A DNA stretch of 64,000 nt from Gammaproteobacteria bacterium (GTDB lineage Bacteria > Pseudomonadota > Gammaproteobacteria > Eutrophobiales > Eutrophobiaceae): positions 973,987 to 1,037,986 of the forward strand of contig OZ253445.1 in the NCBI GenBank assembly GCA_965261165.1. The letters are read 5' to 3'. The translations under genes and the position numbers were made by a program. A model generated the notes under the pieces. That model was not told the DNA's origin and made no database searches. It saw nothing but the letters and a program-made list of their open reading frames with translations. Below, one piece after another: positions 23,860-60,265 of this stretch. Numbering within the stretch: the stretch's first letter is position 1; each line of letters begins with the position of its first letter.

Positions 23860-24080
23860 ATTTAGGCGGGTATCAACCGCAGTGTCGCTACAAACCTCAG
23901 AACTTGAACCGTGAGTTCAAGTGGGAAGTAATCATGACATATCAGGCTCCCCACGAATGGATGTGCACACAACGTCAAAAATCAGATTCCCTTAGTAGTA
24001 TAGATAGGCTCAAGTCACCACCAGCCTGCTCACGAACACCGCAGAAAATACCCTAAACTGCTTGTCGCTACTCCAATTCG
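23860..24080 (-). ncRNA. ssrS: Candidate 6S RNA
   Basis: About 220-nt non-coding gap immediately downstream of zapA on the same strand, which is the conserved ssrS position. The minus-strand RNA ends with ...CUUGAACUCACGGUUCAAG... resembling the E. coli 6S 3' hairpin CCUUGAACCAAGGGUUCAAGG. Its central part GCGGUGUUCGUGAGCAGGCUGGUGG resembles E. coli GCGGUUGGUGAGCAUGCUCGG. Confidence 0.45.
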
Positions 24081-36000: not shown

Positions 36001-36319
36001 TCAGAAAAGCACGAAAATCTAAAATCCCGTAGGGATGATGCCTTTGTAGTCAGATAAATAATCACAGCCCTAAGCTCCGTAGGAGCGACATAATATCTCT
36101 GTGGTCTCGACTTCTGTTCCAGATTCAGTTCTACCTCCTGCATCCATGCAGTCGTCTGTGTCAAAATATTTTCGTCATTATCTCCTCTGTTACTACCCCT
36201 CTGAAGAAGTCAAAAAAGCATTTTAGCTTTGGGCTAACAGCTAATCTGCCTCCATTGACAAATATGGTCAGACATTATACCTTTGCCGACCAGTTGCATC
36301 AGGTCTCTGAGCATTTTTT

Positions 36320-36480
36320 GCTACAGAGTTAAACGGGAAGTCGGTGCGTATTTATGCAATTCCGACACTGCCCCCGCAACGGTAAATAAGTAAAGGCTGA
36401 TTATTCATGCCACTGTGTCTGAGGTGTACATGACATGGGAAGGCGATCAACCTACTGGAATTAATATCTTGCAGTACTTA
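36320..36480 (+). promoter_or_regulatory. Cobalamin (AdoCbl) riboswitch in the btuB leader
   Basis: gttaaacgggaagtcggtgcg...aattccgacactgcccccgcaacggtaa...catgccactgtgtctgag contains the conserved GGGAAG..GGUG, AAUUCC and B12-box GCCACUG elements. Confidence 0.6.
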
Positions 36481-36640
36481 TGAGTCCGGAGACCGACCTT
36501 TTGCCAGAACCATATCGCGGTGGGCGATGGCGGCGGTTTGGTAGGTCAATTTTTCAACCTTTTCCGCACAAATCCCTTCAGCGATATACCGTTTAATTTA
36601 TCGATCCCGGGCGGGTATCGGGTATTAGGGAGTCGTTTTC

Positions 36641-40923: not shown

Positions 40924-41583
40924 CTAATATGGTTTTTCTTCCAGTTTCAATAGACGACCTTCACGAATCATTTTGACTCTACTGAGAAAAGTATTTCCCA
41001 ATAATATGATTCTGGGAAAACCCCCATCGTGCACCGAAGCCTTTACGTTATCTATTTTAATATCTCCGACCATTACTGTTTTAAGACTAACAGTATAGAT
41101 CTTGTCCAGACCAGAGGCGGTTTCTGATAACCCTTCTATGCCTTCCATTTTGTAGTCAATGCCAATACGTTTGGCATGGTTTGCATTCATGGATATGAAT
41201 GTTGCGCCGGTATCGACTAGAAATTTCACCTGAAATCCATTAATACTACCGTTAACTTTATACATCCCGGTCCTACTGGGTGCGATAGTGACCGCATTGC
41301 CTCCGATTGGTTTTTTAAAGTTGCCACCTATCTGTGTACTCAAGGTGTAGGTATTCTGTTCGCCATCAATCTCTATAACCGCCTCCCTGGAATTTGCCGA
41401 GATAAGTAAAACCCCTTCAGGGCTTGGTTTGCCAACCTTTAGTAATCTTTGTTTGCCATCAATGGTGACGATGACTTTATTCTCAAATAAGCCCAGAATA
41501 GCGAGCTTGTCTACGGCAAATAGATTTATAGAAAAAAGTAATAATAAGAGATATTGCGGTCGTCTTAACATAACATTAAGCAT
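40924..41583 (-). CDS. Retropepsin-like (clan AA) aspartic protease, TIGR02281-type, membrane-anchored
   Basis: 219 aa; N-terminal TM; catalytic FLVDTGAT motif. Confidence 0.7.
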   Translation of the reverse strand: MLNVMLRRPQYLLLLLFSINLFAVDKLAILGLFENKVIVTIDGKQRLLKVGKPSPEGVLLISANSREAVIEIDGEQNTYTLSTQIGGNFKKPIGGNAVTIAPSRTGMYKVNGSINGFQVKFLVDTGATFISMNANHAKRIGIDYKMEGIEGLSETASGLDKIYTVSLKTVMVGDIKIDNVKASVHDGGFPRIILLGNTFLSRVKMIREGRLLKLEEKPY

Positions 41584-41600: not shown

Positions 41601-42311
41601 GTGCCTATGAAACCAATCCTGATCTTCCGTCATATTGTCTGCGAAGGGCCCGGCTATTTGAGTGATTATCTCACATCTCGGGATATTCCGTTTAAGATTA
41701 TTTGTATCGATCAAGGCGAAGAGGTCCCCGAAGATATGGATAACTGCTCAGGTTTGGTCTTTATGGGTGGGCCAATGAGTGTCAATGACAGACTTCCATG
41801 GATAGCAAGGGAATTGAAGCTGATCCGTGCAGCTCATTACAGGAATATGCCCGTACTTGGACATTGTTTGGGGGGGCAACTGATTAGTCAGGCGCTAGGC
41901 GGAGAAATCACCCCGAATCCTGTTCCTGAGATGGGATGGCATCCTGTGACAGGGCATAACAATGAGAATGCGCGAGATTGGCTAAAAGATTTGCCCGAAA
42001 ATTTTGAAGTATTTCATTGGCATGGTGAAACATTTTCACTCCCTGATGGCGCTGTCCCATTATTGCAAAGTGATGTCTGTAAAAATCAGGCTTTTATTCT
42101 TGGCAATTGCCTAGCCTTTCAGTGTCATGTAGAGATGAAAAACAATATGGTGCAGGAATGGTTTGATCTTTATAAAGCTGATATCCCTGAACCTTCATTT
42201 AGTGTGCAGTCATATGAGCAGATGTTAGAGAATCTGGAGCGAAGAATTGAAAATTCGAAAGCTGTCGCCAGTGTGTTTTATGATAAATGGCTATCTGGAG
42301 TGAATCTCTAA
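41601..42311 (+). CDS. Class I glutamine amidotransferase-like protein
   Basis: 236 aa; GATase1 triad context (GHCLGGQ, H..E). Confidence 0.7.
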   Translation: MPMKPILIFRHIVCEGPGYLSDYLTSRDIPFKIICIDQGEEVPEDMDNCSGLVFMGGPMSVNDRLPWIARELKLIRAAHYRNMPVLGHCLGGQLISQALGGEITPNPVPEMGWHPVTGHNNENARDWLKDLPENFEVFHWHGETFSLPDGAVPLLQSDVCKNQAFILGNCLAFQCHVEMKNNMVQEWFDLYKADIPEPSFSVQSYEQMLENLERRIENSKAVASVFYDKWLSGVNL

Positions 42312-43180
42312 GGTATATCTACTGCAATTGAGTTTTGTCTGGGGATTTTCTCTGATGACCAATGCCTGATTCCCCACTGAATAATTTCTTCTGTACTCGC
42401 TTGTGATAGTGATTTTTCAGGATGTTGCCCCAGGAAATCAAGTGCCAAGATTAATGTCATCATGGGATTTCCGTCATCTATAGGGCTTGCATGGTATTGC
42501 TTGCTTAATTTATAGCCTTGTTTATCAATAGCGATAGGTATATGTGAATACACGGGTGTAGGATAATCTAGCGATTCCTGTAAATAGATTTGTCTTGGTG
42601 TCGAGTCAAGCAAATCTGCTCCTCGTACAATTTCTGTGATTCTCTGATAGGCATCATCAACAACAGTAGCAATATGATAGGCAACAAGACCATCAGCGCG
42701 ATGGACGATGAAATCTCCTGTTTCAGTTTTCAGAACCTGTTGAAAATTACCCTGAATTCTATCATCTATTTTGATTGCTATTTGATTGGTGATGATACGG
42801 AGTGCGTGTTGTTGATCATAATTATGTCTTTTATTCCGGCAAGTGCCCGAGTATGCCTTGCCCTGTAACTGTTTTCGGGTACAAATACATCGGTAGATAA
42901 GGTCTTTTCCTGAGAGAAAATTTAAGGCTTCTTGATAGGCATCCCGTCTATGACTCTGGAATAAAACTTCGTCATCCCAGTAAAGGCCTAATATCTCCAG
43001 TGATTTGAGTATGGAAGTATCAATACCTATCTGGTTGCGAGGAGTGTCGATATCGTCCATACGCACCAACCATTTCCCGTGCCGACTTTTTGCCTGCATG
43101 TAACTGGCAACGGCGGCTAAGACTGAACCGAAATGCAAGGGACCAGTAGGTGAAGGTGCGAATCGACCTATTACTGACAT
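42308..43180 (-). CDS. gluQ: Glutamyl-Q tRNA(Asp) synthetase
   Basis: 290 aa; truncated GluRS-like catalytic domain (GRFAPSPTGPLHFGS, KLSKQ). Confidence 0.85.
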   Translation of the reverse strand: MSVIGRFAPSPTGPLHFGSVLAAVASYMQAKSRHGKWLVRMDDIDTPRNQIGIDTSILKSLEILGLYWDDEVLFQSHRRDAYQEALNFLSGKDLIYRCICTRKQLQGKAYSGTCRNKRHNYDQQHALRIITNQIAIKIDDRIQGNFQQVLKTETGDFIVHRADGLVAYHIATVVDDAYQRITEIVRGADLLDSTPRQIYLQESLDYPTPVYSHIPIAIDKQGYKLSKQYHASPIDDGNPMMTLILALDFLGQHPEKSLSQASTEEIIQWGIRHWSSEKIPRQNSIAVDIP

Positions 43181-43220: not shown

Positions 43221-44015
43221 CTAACCCAGATGACGTTCCTTAATTTCATCCAGAGTTTTGCAGTCTATACATTGTGATGCTGTGGGGCGTGCCTCAAGTC
43301 GGCGAATACCAATTTCTATTCCACAAATCTCACAGAAGCCATATTCATCAGAATCAAGCATGGAAATTGATTCTTCAATCTTGCTTATGAGCTTACGTTC
43401 TCTATCGCGTGTACGTAATTCCAATGCAAATTCTTCTTCTTGTGATGCGCGATCATTTGGATCTGGAAAATTGGTAGCATCGTCCTGCATGTGATGCACT
43501 GTCCTATCGACTTCCTGCATGAGTTCTGTTTTCCAGGCGAGCAATATCTTTCTGAAATATTCCGTTTGTTCTTTTCCCATATAATCTTCATTCTTCCTTC
43601 TCTGTTTATATGGAGTAATTTTCCTTTTTAGTTTTCCTGTTGTTTTTTTCTTTTTGGCAGGGGTTTTTTTACTTACTTTCTTTTTAGCAACTGATTTCTT
43701 AGCTACCTTTTTGGCCGCCTTCTTTTTGGAGGTTTTCTTTTTGGCAGGGGTTTTTTTACTTACTTTCTTTTTAGCAACTGATTTCTTAGCTACCTTTTTG
43801 GCCACCTTCTTTTTGGAGGTTTTCTTTTTGGCAGGGGTTTTTTTACTTACTTTCTTTTTAGCAACTGATTTCTTAGCTACCTTTTTGGCCACCTTCTTTT
43901 TGGAGGTTTTCTTTTTGGCAGGGGTTTTTTTACTTACTTTCTTTTTAGCAACTGATTTCTTAGCTACCTTTTTGGCCACCTTCTTTTTGGCAGTTGCTTT
44001 TTTCTTGGCAGGCAT
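43221..44015 (-). CDS. dksA: DksA (RNA polymerase-binding transcription factor) with a 125-aa N-terminal Lys/Ala-rich histone-H1-like repeat extension
   Basis: C-terminal 140 aa collinear with E. coli DksA (DRTVHHMQDDATNFPDPNDRASQEEEF...CEICGIEIGIRRLEARPTASQCIDCK); N-terminus is 4 copies of VAKKVAKKSVAKKKVSKKTPAKKKTSKKK. Confidence 0.85.
   Translation of the reverse strand: MPAKKKATAKKKVAKKVAKKSVAKKKVSKKTPAKKKTSKKKVAKKVAKKSVAKKKVSKKTPAKKKTSKKKVAKKVAKKSVAKKKVSKKTPAKKKTSKKKAAKKVAKKSVAKKKVSKKTPAKKKKTTGKLKRKITPYKQRRKNEDYMGKEQTEYFRKILLAWKTELMQEVDRTVHHMQDDATNFPDPNDRASQEEEFALELRTRDRERKLISKIEESISMLDSDEYGFCEICGIEIGIRRLEARPTASQCIDCKTLDEIKERHLG
43651..44010 (-). repeat. Tandem repeat, 87-bp unit x about 4.1 (three near-perfect copies) within dksA
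   Basis: ctttttggcaggggtttttttacttactttctttttagcaactgatttcttagctacctttttggcc(g/a)ccttctttttggaggttttc repeated at 43651, 43738, 43825, 43912. Confidence 0.85.
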
Positions 44016-44122
44016 AACCTGATTACTCCAAACTACTTAAAAAATTCAGCGGGCATAAATAACAGAAAGTTTGCCTTTAGGCAATCTGGATTTTCTCTAA
44101 AAACCGCTTGGCTGCGATTATA

Positions 44123-44833
44123 TCAAAAATTTGTAATCAGGACGGATTTTAATTTATCTGCCCACATTTTACTTGCGCCAGCGACGGCAATGGGCATAGC
44201 AATAAAATTTATGATGGGTGTAAATGTCAGCAACATCACTCCTAAGCCAAAACCAAAAGTTTGTTTTTTCTGCATTGCCATGATTCTGCGTTGTTCTGGA
44301 AATATAATGCCATGATTAGCCATGGGGTAGTCTATATATTCCAATGCCAGCATCCATGCGCCAAAAAGCAACCAGAGGAATGATGCTATTATCTGAACAA
44401 CAGGGATAATGGATAATAAAAACAACGGGAGTGCCCAGACGATAAGATAGAGAAATTTTCCGATTTCAGACCTTATAGCCTTAATTATTTTTAACTCATC
44501 AGTATTGTTCAAGGTCATGTTTGACAGTTTGCTTTCTACTGCTTTTGCTAGAAATCCGTTGAATGGTGCAGCAATCAGATTTGCCGCGATAGTAAAGCAA
44601 AAAAAGATAAGGCTCAGACAGAAAACAGCAAAAAGTGGCCAAATTATCCAGCTTGTCCACCCCCACCAACCGCTTAATAAATCCGAGAGATTATTAGAAC
44701 TATAGGCAATAACAGATATAAATAAAAGCACATTAACTAATAAAGGGATGAATACATAAGCTCTAATTCCGGGCTGTACTATCAATTTAAAACCAGAGAA
44801 AGCATATTTAAAACCTGTAATAAAATCACTCAT
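44123..44833 (-). CDS. cysZ: CysZ-family sulfate transporter
   Basis: 236 aa, collinear with E. coli CysZ (QPGIR..F..PLLVN.LL...AAPFNGFLA...W.LA..Y.DYP..NH). Confidence 0.8.
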   Translation of the reverse strand: MSDFITGFKYAFSGFKLIVQPGIRAYVFIPLLVNVLLFISVIAYSSNNLSDLLSGWWGWTSWIIWPLFAVFCLSLIFFCFTIAANLIAAPFNGFLAKAVESKLSNMTLNNTDELKIIKAIRSEIGKFLYLIVWALPLFLLSIIPVVQIIASFLWLLFGAWMLALEYIDYPMANHGIIFPEQRRIMAMQKKQTFGFGLGVMLLTFTPIINFIAMPIAVAGASKMWADKLKSVLITNF

Positions 44834-58113: not shown

Positions 58114-58468
58114 TCAAGGACTCAACAATTTATCAAAATTGGAATTTATTTCTGGATATTTTCTCTATTATTTCGTGTTCTGTATTTTCCAGTGAAATAA
58201 TTTTTTTATCACTCGATGGTAAAAAAGCTAAAGCAGTATATAAAGATTGAAAAGGCAACGGATACCGCAATCGTTGTAAATTGGGAAAACATTTCCTATC
58301 AGGCAATAGTGCGATGATGGGCTTTCTTGATATGCTTGGAAATGTCACGGCCACGTATAAGCTGTATATAGGGCTCTATATAAGCTAGAATCGCCCACCT
58401 TTAGCATGGATAAGAGGATTAGCCGCCATCTATTTATCTAGCTTCTATCAATTAGGCAAATAGTTAAA

Positions 58469-60265
58469 ATGCAGAATATTCGCAATTTCTCGATCATTGC
58501 GCACATTGATCATGGCAAATCCACATTAGCCGACCGGTTTATACAGCATTGTGGTGCATTAACCGAGCGAGAAATGTCTGATCAGGTGCTCGATTCTATG
58601 GATCTGGAACGTGAACGTGGTATTACCATCAAGTCTCAGAGTGTCACCCTGAAATACAAAGCTGAGAATGGGGAGATATATCAGTTAAATCTTATTGATA
58701 CTCCTGGACATGTAGATTTTAGTTATGAGGTTTCACGTTCTCTTGCGGCTTGCGATGGTGCACTACTGGTTGTGGATGCGACACAAGGTGTTGAAGCGCA
58801 GAGTGTTGCCAACTGTATGACTGCTATCGATTTGGATCTGGAAGTATTACCGGTATTGAATAAGATTGATCTTCCATCCGCAGACCCTGAACGCGTGTTA
58901 AACGAGGTTGAAGAGATTGTCGGACTTGATACCACAGACACGATACAGGTAAGTGCCAAGACTGGTCTAGGGGTGGAAGGCCTACTTGAACAAATTATAA
59001 ACGTTATCCCCGCACCATCAGGCGTAGAGGATGCACCACTCAAAGCATTAATCATAGATTCCTGGTTTGATAATTATCTGGGCGTTGTTTCATTGGTAAG
59101 GGTTATCGATGGCTGTCTGCCAGCAGGTAAGAAAATGCGTGTGATGTCTACAGGAAGAGACCATCTGGTTGATGAGATCGGTATTTTTACTCCAAAGCGG
59201 AGTGCACAAACGGCCTTGAATGCTGGAGAAGTCGGTTATGTTATTTCTGGCATTAAAGACTTGGGAGGAGCACCAGTTGGAGATACATTAACGCTGGCTG
59301 ATAATCCGGCATCTGAATCATTACCAGGTTTCCAGGAGATTAAACCGAAAGTTTTTGCTGGCATGTATCCTATAGATTCCAGTGATTATGAAGCTTTTCG
59401 TGAAGCCTTGACGAAATTAAAACTGAATGATGCAGCACTTTATTTTGAACCTGAAACCTCTCAGGCTCTGGGATTTGGTTTTCGTTGCGGCTTCCTAGGG
59501 ATGTTACATCTGGAAATTATTCAGGAACGACTTGAACGTGAGTATGATCTGAGTCTGATTACTGCAGCACCAACAGTGGTTTATGAAGTTGAAACGACGA
59601 ATGGGGAGATAGTTTCAGTTGATAATCCGGCGAAATTACCTCCTATGGATAAAATTAAGGAGGTCCGTGAACCCATTATTTATGCTGATATTCTTGTGCC
59701 ACAGAAATATTTAGGTAATGCCATTACGCTGTGTATCGAGAAACGTGGCGTACAGAAGAAACTACAATATCTGGGCAATCAAATTTCACTGGGTTTTGAA
59801 CTGCCCATGAGTGAGGTTGTTCTGGATTTTTTTGATCGTCTTAAATCAGCAAGTCGAGGCTATGCTTCCTTCGATTATCATTTTATGAGATTTCAGGCAT
59901 CTCCACTGGTCAAGCTAGACATATTAATTAATGGTGAGCGAGTCGATGCACTCTCTATTATCACGCATCAAGAACAATCTCGAAACAGAGGGCATGACTT
60001 GACGGCTAAAATTAAAGAATTTATTCCAAGGCAAATGTTTGATGTTGCCATTCAGGCTGCAATTGGCTCAAAAATTTTATCAAGGCATTCAGTTAAGGCA
60101 TTACGTAAAAATGTGACAGCAAAATGCTATGGCGGTGATATTTCTCGTAAACGCAAATTGCTGGAAAAACAAAAGGCAGGTAAGAAGCGGATGAAACAAT
60201 TTGGCTCTGTAGAAATACCACAAGATGCCTTTATGGCAATATTACATGTGGGGGAAGATAAGTGA
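58469..60265 (+). CDS. lepA: Elongation factor 4
   Basis: 598 aa, GTPase motifs AHIDHGKST / DTPGH / NKID, LepA C-terminal domain. Confidence 0.9.

Follow-up and report, generated by a model that had tools for sequence, protein, structure and literature searches.

In Proteobacteria, ppGpp acts with DksA as its central protein cofactor, and to our knowledge nearly all that has been learned about DksA comes from the tail-less proteins of E. coli, Pseudomonas and Salmonella. A described protein that does carry a tail is DdbA (SCO2075) of Streptomyces coelicolor (Aldridge et al. 2013), which combines an H1-like N-terminal domain with a DksA-like C-terminal domain, is encoded near ftsZ, was reported to be Streptomyces-specific and contains S/T-A/T-A-K-K pentapeptides (PMC3643593). 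EMSA showed that its N-terminal domain, which varies in length among species, binds both supercoiled and linear DNA and that its C-terminal domain does not, and the protein shows distant similarity to E. coli DksA (BLASTP 8e-11) (PMC3643593). The KPAA tail of Pseudomonas aeruginosa AlgP likewise binds DNA (PMC9239181). In the open-access literature, no description of a tailed DksA from Gammaproteobacteria was found, DdbA being the one such fusion encountered.

We analyzed a 64-kb stretch of gammaproteobacterial DNA (the window), in which a dksA gene lies between cysZ and gluQ on the reverse strand, as do all features of the dksA locus given below unless marked otherwise. The ORF (43221..44015) starts with ATG and encodes 264 amino acids followed by a stop codon. 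The gluQ gene, encoding glutamyl-Q tRNA(Asp) synthetase (42308..43180), follows 40 nt downstream; dksA-gluQ is a classic gene pair. The order smc-queF-cysZ-dksA-gluQ is common to the window and two syntenic relatives, L081 and L083 (2.3-2.4 Mb contigs), while a third, L082 (1.7 Mb), has smc-queF-dksA in common with it. NCBI/ENA already hold an identical protein, annotated as 264 aa, and the closest named match to its core, among the matches listed, was from Thiotrichaceae bacterium UBA7359 (78% identity). On balance, we think it somewhat probable that this is the organism's housekeeping dksA, combining a canonical secondary-channel regulator with a polycationic nucleoid tether. A second, tail-less dksA copy may be present beyond the window.

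The C-terminal half, residues 133-264 (43224..43619), aligns with residues 20-149 of E. coli DksA at 62% identity over 130 aa (81/130), and E. coli DksA 1tjl was matched at E=2.5e-52. The curated DksA family model TIGR02420 scored 167.3 bits, above its threshold of 115.5, as did Pfam DksA_N (119, cut-off 27, E=1e-34) and zf-dskA_traR (37.2, cut-off 24.9, E=3e-9) above theirs; the stricter, enterobacterial-type DksA model NF008045 scored 190, under its cut-off of 289. The Pfam, TIGR02420 and E. coli DksA matches bear out the view of the first-pass annotation that this part of the protein is a canonical DksA. At the coiled-coil tip, DPNDRA (43446..43463), residues D185, D188 and A190 correspond to E. 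coli D71, D74 and A76 of the DxxDxA motif, which was invariant across 52 tailed homologues. The C4 zinc finger (43260..43334) is made up of C228, C231, C249 and C252, equivalent to E. coli C114, C117, C135 and C138. In E. coli, the basic residues contributing to ppGpp site 2 are, as we take it, R91, K94, K98, R129 and K139; all five are kept at the sequence level (R205, K208, K212, R243 and K253), and the further E. coli DksA residues L95, R125, E143 and E146 are conserved in the core.

In the AF2 model of the core (pLDDT ~70-90), helices 148-181 and 189-221 pair as a coiled coil with the tip loop between them, and a zinc-finger region and a C-terminal helix (250-263) are also present. Foldseek matched it to 1tjl_A (2.3e-10) and 7khi_M (9.4e-10) with modest TM-scores (TMt 0.56-0.57); PDB 1TJL is E. 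coli DksA, and 5VSW and 7KHI are its complexes with RNAP. By orthology, the core should work as in E. coli, including in its binding to RNAP.

The remaining N-terminal residues, 1-132 (43620..44015), form a Lys-rich tail that is predicted to be disordered. It contains 67 K, 20 A, 15 V, 11 S, 10 T and 5 P (51% K, 15% A), giving a net charge of +68, and the AlphaFold model has no secondary structure over residues 1-140 (pLDDT ~45-57). The tail opens with a leader, MPAKKKATAKKK (43980..44015), that resembles the end of the repeat unit and whose N-terminal MPAKKK is conserved in relatives. Next, at 43719..43979, come three tandem copies of an 87-bp (29-aa) unit, VAKKVAKKSVAKKKVSKKTPAKKKTSKKK, with no differences between them; located at 43979-43893, 43892-43806 and 43805-43719, they make up 261 bp of 100% DNA identity, and the unit length of 29 codons keeps them in frame. 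A partial fourth unit (43632..43718), with 1 mismatch in its first 69 nt (GTG>GCG, V>A) and a diverged 3' end, runs into the linker KKTTGKLKRK. Tandem Repeats Finder (TRF) reported 4.0 copies of an 87-bp unit with 99% matches (43646..43990), and a 28-nt probe from the repeat unit had 4 matches in the window compared with 0 in 100 shuffles.

This agrees in outline with the first-pass annotation, which had described a DksA joined to Lys-rich repeats resembling histone H1; the fusion is in frame. Its statement that three 87-bp units are identical was reproduced unit by unit with 0 pairwise differences, and its call of a recent expansion is upheld, since such identity implies recent duplication. 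Its count of four tandem repeats is right for three perfect copies, the fourth amounting to only ~0.8 copy, and the Lys-rich N-terminus that it put at 125 aa is real and 132 aa long.

Pfam HC2 matched the full-length protein at 50.7 bits and the tail alone at 33.6 bits, relative to a gathering score of 40. The match was lost in 6/6 composition-preserving shuffles of the tail, and an explanation by composition alone was rejected on that ground. Two NCBIfam H1-like models, covering Hc2 and Burkholderia H1-like proteins, scored far under threshold (NF038052, 18.1 against 135; NF038053, 28 against 80). Since the tail alone also stays under the gathering score, the HC2 match need not mean homology and may instead reflect convergent AKKK-type periodicity. 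No other ORF of the window has a Lys-rich tract of comparable kind; the sole exception, a 607-aa ORF (58442-60262), has a basic C-terminus of the ordinary sort. The confinement of the tract to dksA within the window argues against genome-wide drift.

A search with the core only, covering 1.84 billion representatives, gave 128 scorable proteins among the 150 best matches, of which 74 had an N-terminal extension of at least 40 aa, K/R-rich in 44 of these. Tails of 230-410 aa were present in 13/13 Alcanivorax/Alloalcanivorax genomes sampled. Among 120 listed homologues, an in-frame K-rich tail was found in all except two 157-aa forms (P0099 and P0119), which we attribute to alternative start calls. 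The tailed homologues begin with MPAKKK, MAAKKK or MATKKK and are 213-303 aa in length. The first-pass annotation had suggested comparing repeat number in related genomes, and this comparison revealed arrays and tail lengths that vary by species: perfect repeats of their own, lineage-specific and with periods of 10-36 aa, occur in 28 of the 120 homologues, and the tails of L082 and L081 carry 45-bp x 7 and 45-bp x 2.7 arrays, respectively. Orthologous DksA in many environmental Gammaproteobacteria bears an H1-like polycation of 100-400 aa. The earlier impression that it is uncommon for a secondary-channel factor to carry a DNA-tethering tail must therefore be revised, as tails are the majority among the closest DksA representatives and are found in cultured Alcanivorax/Alloalcanivorax, with the Streptomyces DdbA of 2013 as a precedent. 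Judged from these sequences, tailed DksA is common in environmental Gammaproteobacteria, and the window gene is interesting rather than unique.

We propose that the coiled coil would enter the RNAP secondary channel with its tip residues D185/D188 brought close to the active site, and that the globular and zinc-finger part would sit on the beta-prime rim helices and form ppGpp site 2 together with RNAP. The tail would emerge from the N-terminus of the globular domain, which is exposed to solvent and not within the channel. By analogy with the histone H1 C-terminal domain, and with the DdbA N-terminal domain, for which binding was shown directly, it most likely binds DNA non-specifically. A DNA-bound tail would draw the pool of DksA to the nucleoid and raise the local DksA concentration near promoter-bound RNAP, and might add to DNA compaction under starvation. 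We regard as most likely a canonical secondary-channel regulator whose tail tethers it to the nucleoid, or possibly to polyphosphate (polyP) or RNA.

A +68 polycation fits RNA or polyP as readily as DNA, so the sequence does not set the ligand. It is conceivable, though we consider it unlikely, that the main ligand is polyP or RNA (nascent, rRNA or ribosome-associated) and not DNA, and a role of the tail in linking DksA to polyP granules or polyP-dependent proteolysis in starvation is to be regarded with similar doubt. The H1-like KPAA tail of AlgP localizes to polyP granules and is required for their even spacing (PMC9239181), stretches of at least three Lys in a row help EngA and SrmB to bind polyP strongly and non-covalently (PMC12077175), and KKK runs abound in the window tail. 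In addition, a reference cited in PMC12077175 reports that E. coli requires DksA in order to accumulate polyP. However, DdbA, the only characterized H1-like/DksA fusion, has directly shown DNA binding (PMC3643593), RNAP as the target of DksA works on DNA, and dksA had no link to ppk or ppx within the window. Binding of DNA and binding of polyP or RNA by the tail are compatible, not exclusive.

We also considered an essentially neutral tail, a low-complexity expansion that arose when replication slipped in A-rich coding sequence and that serves no specific function, which we judge improbable; equally improbable is the corollary that the protein tolerates it owing to a solvent-exposed DksA N-terminus. 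In favor of neutrality, the tails of the homologues differ widely, and by lineage, in sequence, length and repeat period. Tail dN was ~5 times that of the core, and tail dN/dS ~0.14-0.18 compared with 0.05-0.13 for the core, values that carry the uncertainty of low-complexity alignment and of saturated dS between the window and its relatives. A crude NJ tree of ~110-aa cores, too weak to separate tail gains from losses, clustered the tailed forms into at least two groups with tail-less sub-clades nested among them, and these sub-clades also favor neutrality. Nevertheless, the tails keep their richness in Lys, their frame and the N-terminal MxAKKK motif between lineages with cores only ~55-65% identical, every sampled Alcanivorax/Alloalcanivorax genome has a tail, the dN/dS of the tail stays below 0.2, and no ORF elsewhere in the window has a similar tract other than the basic C-terminus mentioned above. 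Under the preferred reading of a functional polycation, the tail would be under selection for charge and composition with its exact sequence free, and would be remodeled by tandem duplications and deletions that preserve the frame; the three identical 87-bp units would then represent the most recent such event in the window lineage. In favor of such selection are the predominance of tailed proteins even in the core-only search, the tails of all 13 Alcanivorax/Alloalcanivorax loci and the clustering of tailed forms on the core tree.

It is quite unlikely that the assembled copy number (3 perfect units and 1 partial) is wrong through repeat collapse or expansion. Short reads do not span the 261 bp of perfect tandem identity, and exact-DNA scans of metagenome contigs, using a 27-mer of unique flank and a 28-mer of the repeat unit, found 0 other copies of the dksA repeat allele; the cluster of the 264-aa protein has 1 member. 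On the other hand, the source contig, at 2.13 Mb, points to a finished or long-read assembly, the units keep the reading frame, and even a wrong count would leave the gene identity unaffected. The first-pass annotation had named an assembly artefact as a concern; with 264 aa, the protein falls mid-range among relatives (226-303 aa), and nothing suggests an artefactual expansion.

The start of translation was examined in the syntenic relatives. A Shine-Dalgarno sequence, GGAG (44026..44029), lies 10 nt upstream of the ATG, and both are invariant in 4 syntenic genomes (the window and three relatives), with the tail in frame in every syntenic relative. The dksA leader contains a small hairpin, TTGCC-TAAA-GGCAA (44071..44084), that is conserved in relatives with G-U-compatible changes. 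Further upstream, ~100 nt from the ATG and overlapping the cysZ stop, is an extended -10-like box, TGATATAAT (44117..44125), conserved in L081 and L083, i.e. in 2/3 syntenic relatives, by eye and alignment; a two-hexamer promoter scan upstream of dksA gave no candidate. The window ORF has no ATG between M1 and M146, and M146 falls inside the region alignable with E. coli DksA, which begins at residue 133 (E. coli residue 20). An internal start codon was ruled out by the position of M146, the conserved ATG and Shine-Dalgarno sequence and the in-frame tails of relatives. A 122-aa antisense ORF (43654..44022, plus strand) was rejected as a Phe/Leu mirror of Lys codons. The tail being untranslated, whether through an internal start, as in public annotations of some relatives that use an internal Met to give 157-aa proteins (P0099, P0119, P0125 and P0126), or because the repeat belongs to that antisense ORF, is thus extremely improbable, given also the K-rich in-frame tails of all listed relatives but two. 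Orthologues starting downstream of the repeats, a scenario raised by the first-pass annotation, gave way on comparison to the upstream ATG, which, on sequence grounds, is the real start, and the tail is translated. Public records are inconsistent on this point, giving the same gene as 157 aa or ~270 aa.

For the window itself the result is modest: one more member of the tailed DksA proteins, with a notably fresh repeat expansion. More broadly, we tentatively suggest that a canonical DksA doubles as a nucleoid- or polyP-associated polycation in a large, mostly uncultured marine and environmental gammaproteobacterial group and in Alcanivorax. Stringent-response control of RNAP might there be physically coupled to chromosome compaction or polyP granules, with rapid in-frame repeat gain and loss tuning the coupling between lineages or strains, in an arrangement evolved independently of DdbA. 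The H1-like polycation on DksA in many environmental Gammaproteobacteria suggests that the picture of a freely diffusing DksA at constant concentration may not apply in organisms with a tailed DksA, where transcription control and nucleoid (or polyP) organization may share one polypeptide, as proposed for DdbA.

Compared with known systems, the window protein shares with E. coli DksA the DxxDxA tip, the C4 zinc finger, the ppGpp site-2 basic residues, the C-terminal helix and the dksA-gluQ pair. It differs in having 132 residues with 51% Lys where, in E. coli DksA, the conserved PY motif is preceded by only ~19 non-basic residues, and in the replacements N88 to T, H39 to Y and K147 to R. With Chlamydia Hc2 (PF07382, HC2) and other bacterial H1-like proteins it shares Lys-rich, AKK-type periodic repeats, although Hc2 is a stand-alone nucleoid condenser. 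The KPAA tails of P. aeruginosa AlgP (AlgR3) and of PhaF are similar in their disordered, Lys/Ala/Pro-rich tandem repeats of H1-like composition, and their repeat number changes between clones (PMC9239181). In contrast, AlgP carries its tail at the C-terminus, with an unrelated helical domain before it; this tail has a 4-aa unit (KPAA) and is associated with polyP granules, and the protein has no RNAP secondary-channel domain.

DdbA is similar in its basic H1/Hc2-like N-terminal domain with short Lys-rich repeats, in its DksA-like C-terminal domain with D71/D74 equivalents and four Cys, and in size, its constructs of 138 and 124 aa comparing with 132 and 132 aa in the window protein. However, DdbA is an actinobacterial DksA-like paralogue encoded near ftsZ and built on pentapeptides, whereas the window protein is a canonical gammaproteobacterial orthologue encoded beside gluQ and built on 29-aa units. 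Set against the published description of SCO2075, these differences in lineage, location, repeat unit and similarity to E. coli DksA indicate that the fusion of tail and DksA most likely arose independently of DdbA, by convergence.

The window's dksA gene (ORF 43221..44015, - strand, ATG start, 264 aa) encodes an N-terminal tail (residues 1-132) followed by a core (residues 133-264). The protein matched Pfam DksA_N (1e-34) and zf-dskA_traR (3e-9), and scored 167 bits against NCBIfam TIGR02420 (cut-off 115.5). Residues 20-149 of E. coli DksA align with window residues 133-263 (E=2.5e-52, 81 of 130 positions identical). In E. coli numbering, the coiled-coil tip D71, D74 and A76, all four zinc-finger cysteines, the basic residues R91, K94, K98, R129 and K139, and likewise L95, R125, E143 and E146 are kept, while N88T, H39Y and K147R distinguish the two proteins. 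In an AlphaFold model based on 52 homologues, helices 148-181 and 189-221 form the coiled coil and flank its tip loop, and a zinc-finger region and a C-terminal helix follow; core pLDDT is ~70-90. The top Foldseek matches were 1tjl (E. coli DksA) and the DksA chain of 7khi (RNAP/rrnB P1/ppGpp complex). As in E. coli, gluQ comes next, 40 nt downstream, and the order smc-queF-cysZ-dksA-gluQ-GATase-Asp protease is common to the window and its syntenic relatives L081 and L083 (2.3-2.4 Mb contigs); a third, L082 (1.7 Mb), has smc-queF-dksA-Asp protease, and cysZ, gluQ and GATase genes were not called there. Family models, key residues, fold and gene context all agree with the first-pass annotation that the C-terminal part is a canonical DksA, and the gene is the housekeeping dksA. 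By orthology, the core would bind the RNAP secondary channel and cooperate with ppGpp.

Several other features of the window were recorded. The product of a conserved neighbour at 40924-41583 (-) is 219 aa long and has a signal-like N-terminus; its syntenic counterparts carry retropepsin-like Asp-protease domains (PF13650, PF13975). A 6S RNA (SsrS) gene lies at 23870-24050 (-) (Rfam RF00013, full-length match, 70.9 bits versus a gathering score of 46.4), and a cobalamin riboswitch at 36284-36515 (+) (RF00174, 98.6 bits); its vicinity in the syntenic relatives holds a TonB-dependent receptor, a periplasmic binding protein and a cob(I)alamin adenosyltransferase.

The tail contains 67 K, 20 A, 15 V, 11 S, 10 T and 5 P, without acidic residues, giving a net charge of +68 compared with -7 for the core. 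AlphaFold assigned it no secondary structure (pLDDT ~50), and it is thus predicted to be a disordered polycation. Pfam HC2, the family of the Chlamydia H1-like protein, scored 50.7 bits with the full-length protein and 33.6 bits with the tail alone (gathering score 40). No HC2 match was obtained with any of six composition-preserving tail shuffles, which rules out composition alone and places the likeness in an AKK-type periodicity. Two NCBIfam H1-like models scored far under their cut-offs; the tail is H1-like in kind, with homology unproven.

Judging from E. coli structures and by analogy with Streptomyces coelicolor DdbA (SCO2075) and Pseudomonas aeruginosa AlgP, the globular domain would have its N-terminus solvent exposed at the channel mouth, so that a flexible 132-aa tail could reach DNA. 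The tail would tether DksA to DNA non-specifically, thereby concentrating the factor on the nucleoid, and might also aid compaction. It is also plausible, and compatible with DNA binding, that its preferred ligand is polyP or RNA: Lys runs confer tight polyP binding on EngA and SrmB (PMC12077175), and AlgP is found at polyP granules, which it spaces (PMC9239181).

Tandem Repeats Finder reported an 87-bp unit x 4.0 at 43646..43990 (99% matches). Delimited in the coding register, three units (43979-43893, 43892-43806 and 43805-43719, -) show zero base differences, each encoding VAKKVAKKSVAKKKVSKKTPAKKKTSKKK. The fourth (43718-43632, -) carries a single change, GTG>GCG (V>A), within its first 69 nt, and then diverges into KKTTGK. 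A 12-aa leader, MPAKKKATAKKK, looks like the end of a repeat unit. A 28-nt unit-derived probe had four matches in the window, against none in 100 shuffles. The array of four tandem units described in the first-pass annotation is therefore present with three identical copies, but the real count is 3 perfect units plus ~0.8 copy, and the basic N-terminal region, put there at 125 aa, measures 132 aa. There is a small chance that assembly got the copy number wrong, which would be immaterial to gene identity; neither two exact-DNA metagenome scans nor the 90%-identity cluster nor the contig index gave a second copy of the window allele.

Repeat turnover is the norm in the DksA tail. Perfect tandem repeats of their own occur in 28 of 120 homologues, with periods of 10, 11, 12, 14-16, 20, 25, 29 and 36 aa. 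Arrays of 45 bp x 7 and 45 bp x 2.7 were found in L082 and L081, and none in the L083 tail. The window's 29-aa unit resolves approximately into sub-units of 14 and 15 aa, corresponding to the 15-aa (45-bp) units of relatives. The tail turns over through in-frame repeat change, and with repeats so common, the three identical units are the newest instance of a general process; their base-for-base identity upholds the proposed recent expansion. A neutral low-complexity expansion is disfavoured, since charge, frame and N-terminal motif are kept across distant lineages. Nei-Gojobori dN/dS was ~0.14-0.18 for the tail and ~0.05-0.13 for the core, with tail dN ~5-fold above core dN, values subject to uncertain low-complexity alignment and, for dN/dS, to dS saturation in more distant pairs. 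Separately, a ~25-aa linker (MGKVTNIKKSPT..., KKxMGKVTNIKKSPTxK...) between the Lys repeats and the PY motif, kept in nearly all close relatives (database homologues P0002-P0033), is missing from the window protein (43620-43650, -).

That the tail is not translated is effectively refuted. After M1 no further ATG occurs before M146, which itself falls within the stretch aligning to E. coli DksA. All three syntenic relatives keep the ATG, the GGAG Shine-Dalgarno that precedes it by 10 nt, and a small hairpin in the leader; an extended -10-like TGATATAAT is shared by two, L081 and L083. In-frame Lys-rich N-extensions, opening with MPAKKK, MAAKKK or MATKKK (total lengths 213-303 aa), are present in all of the 120 closest database proteins except two 157-aa forms (P0099 and P0119), apparently alternative start calls. 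The same 264-aa product is already annotated in NCBI/ENA on a 2.13-Mb contig. Orthologues thus do not place the start downstream of the repeats, and the tail is conserved and translated.

The hairpin (TTGCC-TAAA-GGCAA, 44071-44084, -) lies in the dksA 5' leader, and changes in relatives from GGCAA to GGCGG preserve pairing via G-U. E. coli dksA is autoregulated, and the conserved hairpin may be a leader regulatory element. Public records annotate the start of the same gene inconsistently (P0099, P0119, P0125, P0126): 157-aa versions begin at an internal MGKVTNIKK and share 90% clusters with 271-286 aa versions, RKZ47491.1, named DksA, being one example. Database records probably under-annotate the tail. 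An antisense 122-aa Phe/Leu-rich ORF (43654..44022, +) was rejected as a mirror artefact of AAA/AAG Lys codons; this stretch also yields three spurious terminator-like matches on the + strand.

The fusion was regarded as unusual in the first-pass annotation, which its distribution contradicts. A core-only query, free of Lys-rich words, was searched against 1.84 billion cluster representatives, giving 284 proteins at E<=1e-30. Among the best 150, 128 were scorable by a recognisable tip motif, and 74 of these carry an N-extension of at least 40 aa relative to E. coli, 44 of the 74 being at least 25% K+R; the counts are of clusters, not organisms, and at 50% identity clustering over-represents proteins with variable tails. 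Such tails occur in ~30 of 80 species-representative genomes, including 13/13 Alcanivorax/Alloalcanivorax loci (230-410 aa), and are absent there from Pseudomonas, Aeromonas, Psychrosphaera and Beggiatoa-like genomes. Woeseiaceae and Sulfuriflexus are further source names. A rough NJ tree of cores gave at least two tailed groups, Alcanivorax and a large group of unnamed gammaproteobacterial MAGs including the window, with some tail-less sub-clades nested inside. One MAG labelled Klebsiella pneumoniae (L018, CAMBTO010000007.1) encodes a DksA with a ~180-aa extension that groups with marine gammaproteobacterial MAGs, apart from enterobacterial DksA; the label is probably wrong.

No description of tailed gammaproteobacterial DksA was found in the open-access full-text literature; the fusion is common in the window's clade and apparently unstudied there. 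The single locus is of moderate interest, and the broader pattern may be relevant to stringent-response and bacterial-chromatin research. In AlgP, a KPAA tail binds DNA and repeat number differs between clones (PMC9239181). DdbA, described in 2013 and regarded by its authors as Streptomyces-specific, has the same architecture: a basic N-domain resembling H1 and Hc2, of differing length among species, joined to a DksA-like C-domain that has four Cys and counterparts of D71 and D74 (PMC3643593). In EMSA, full-length DdbA and its N-domain shift DNA and the C-domain does not; ddbA mutants are altered in nucleoid condensation and in their supercoiling responses, and DdbA over-expression suppresses a relA phenotype (PMC3643593). 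The window gene is thus a DksA-family factor with an H1-like N-terminal tail, an architecture already known, in a fusion that very probably arose independently of DdbA.
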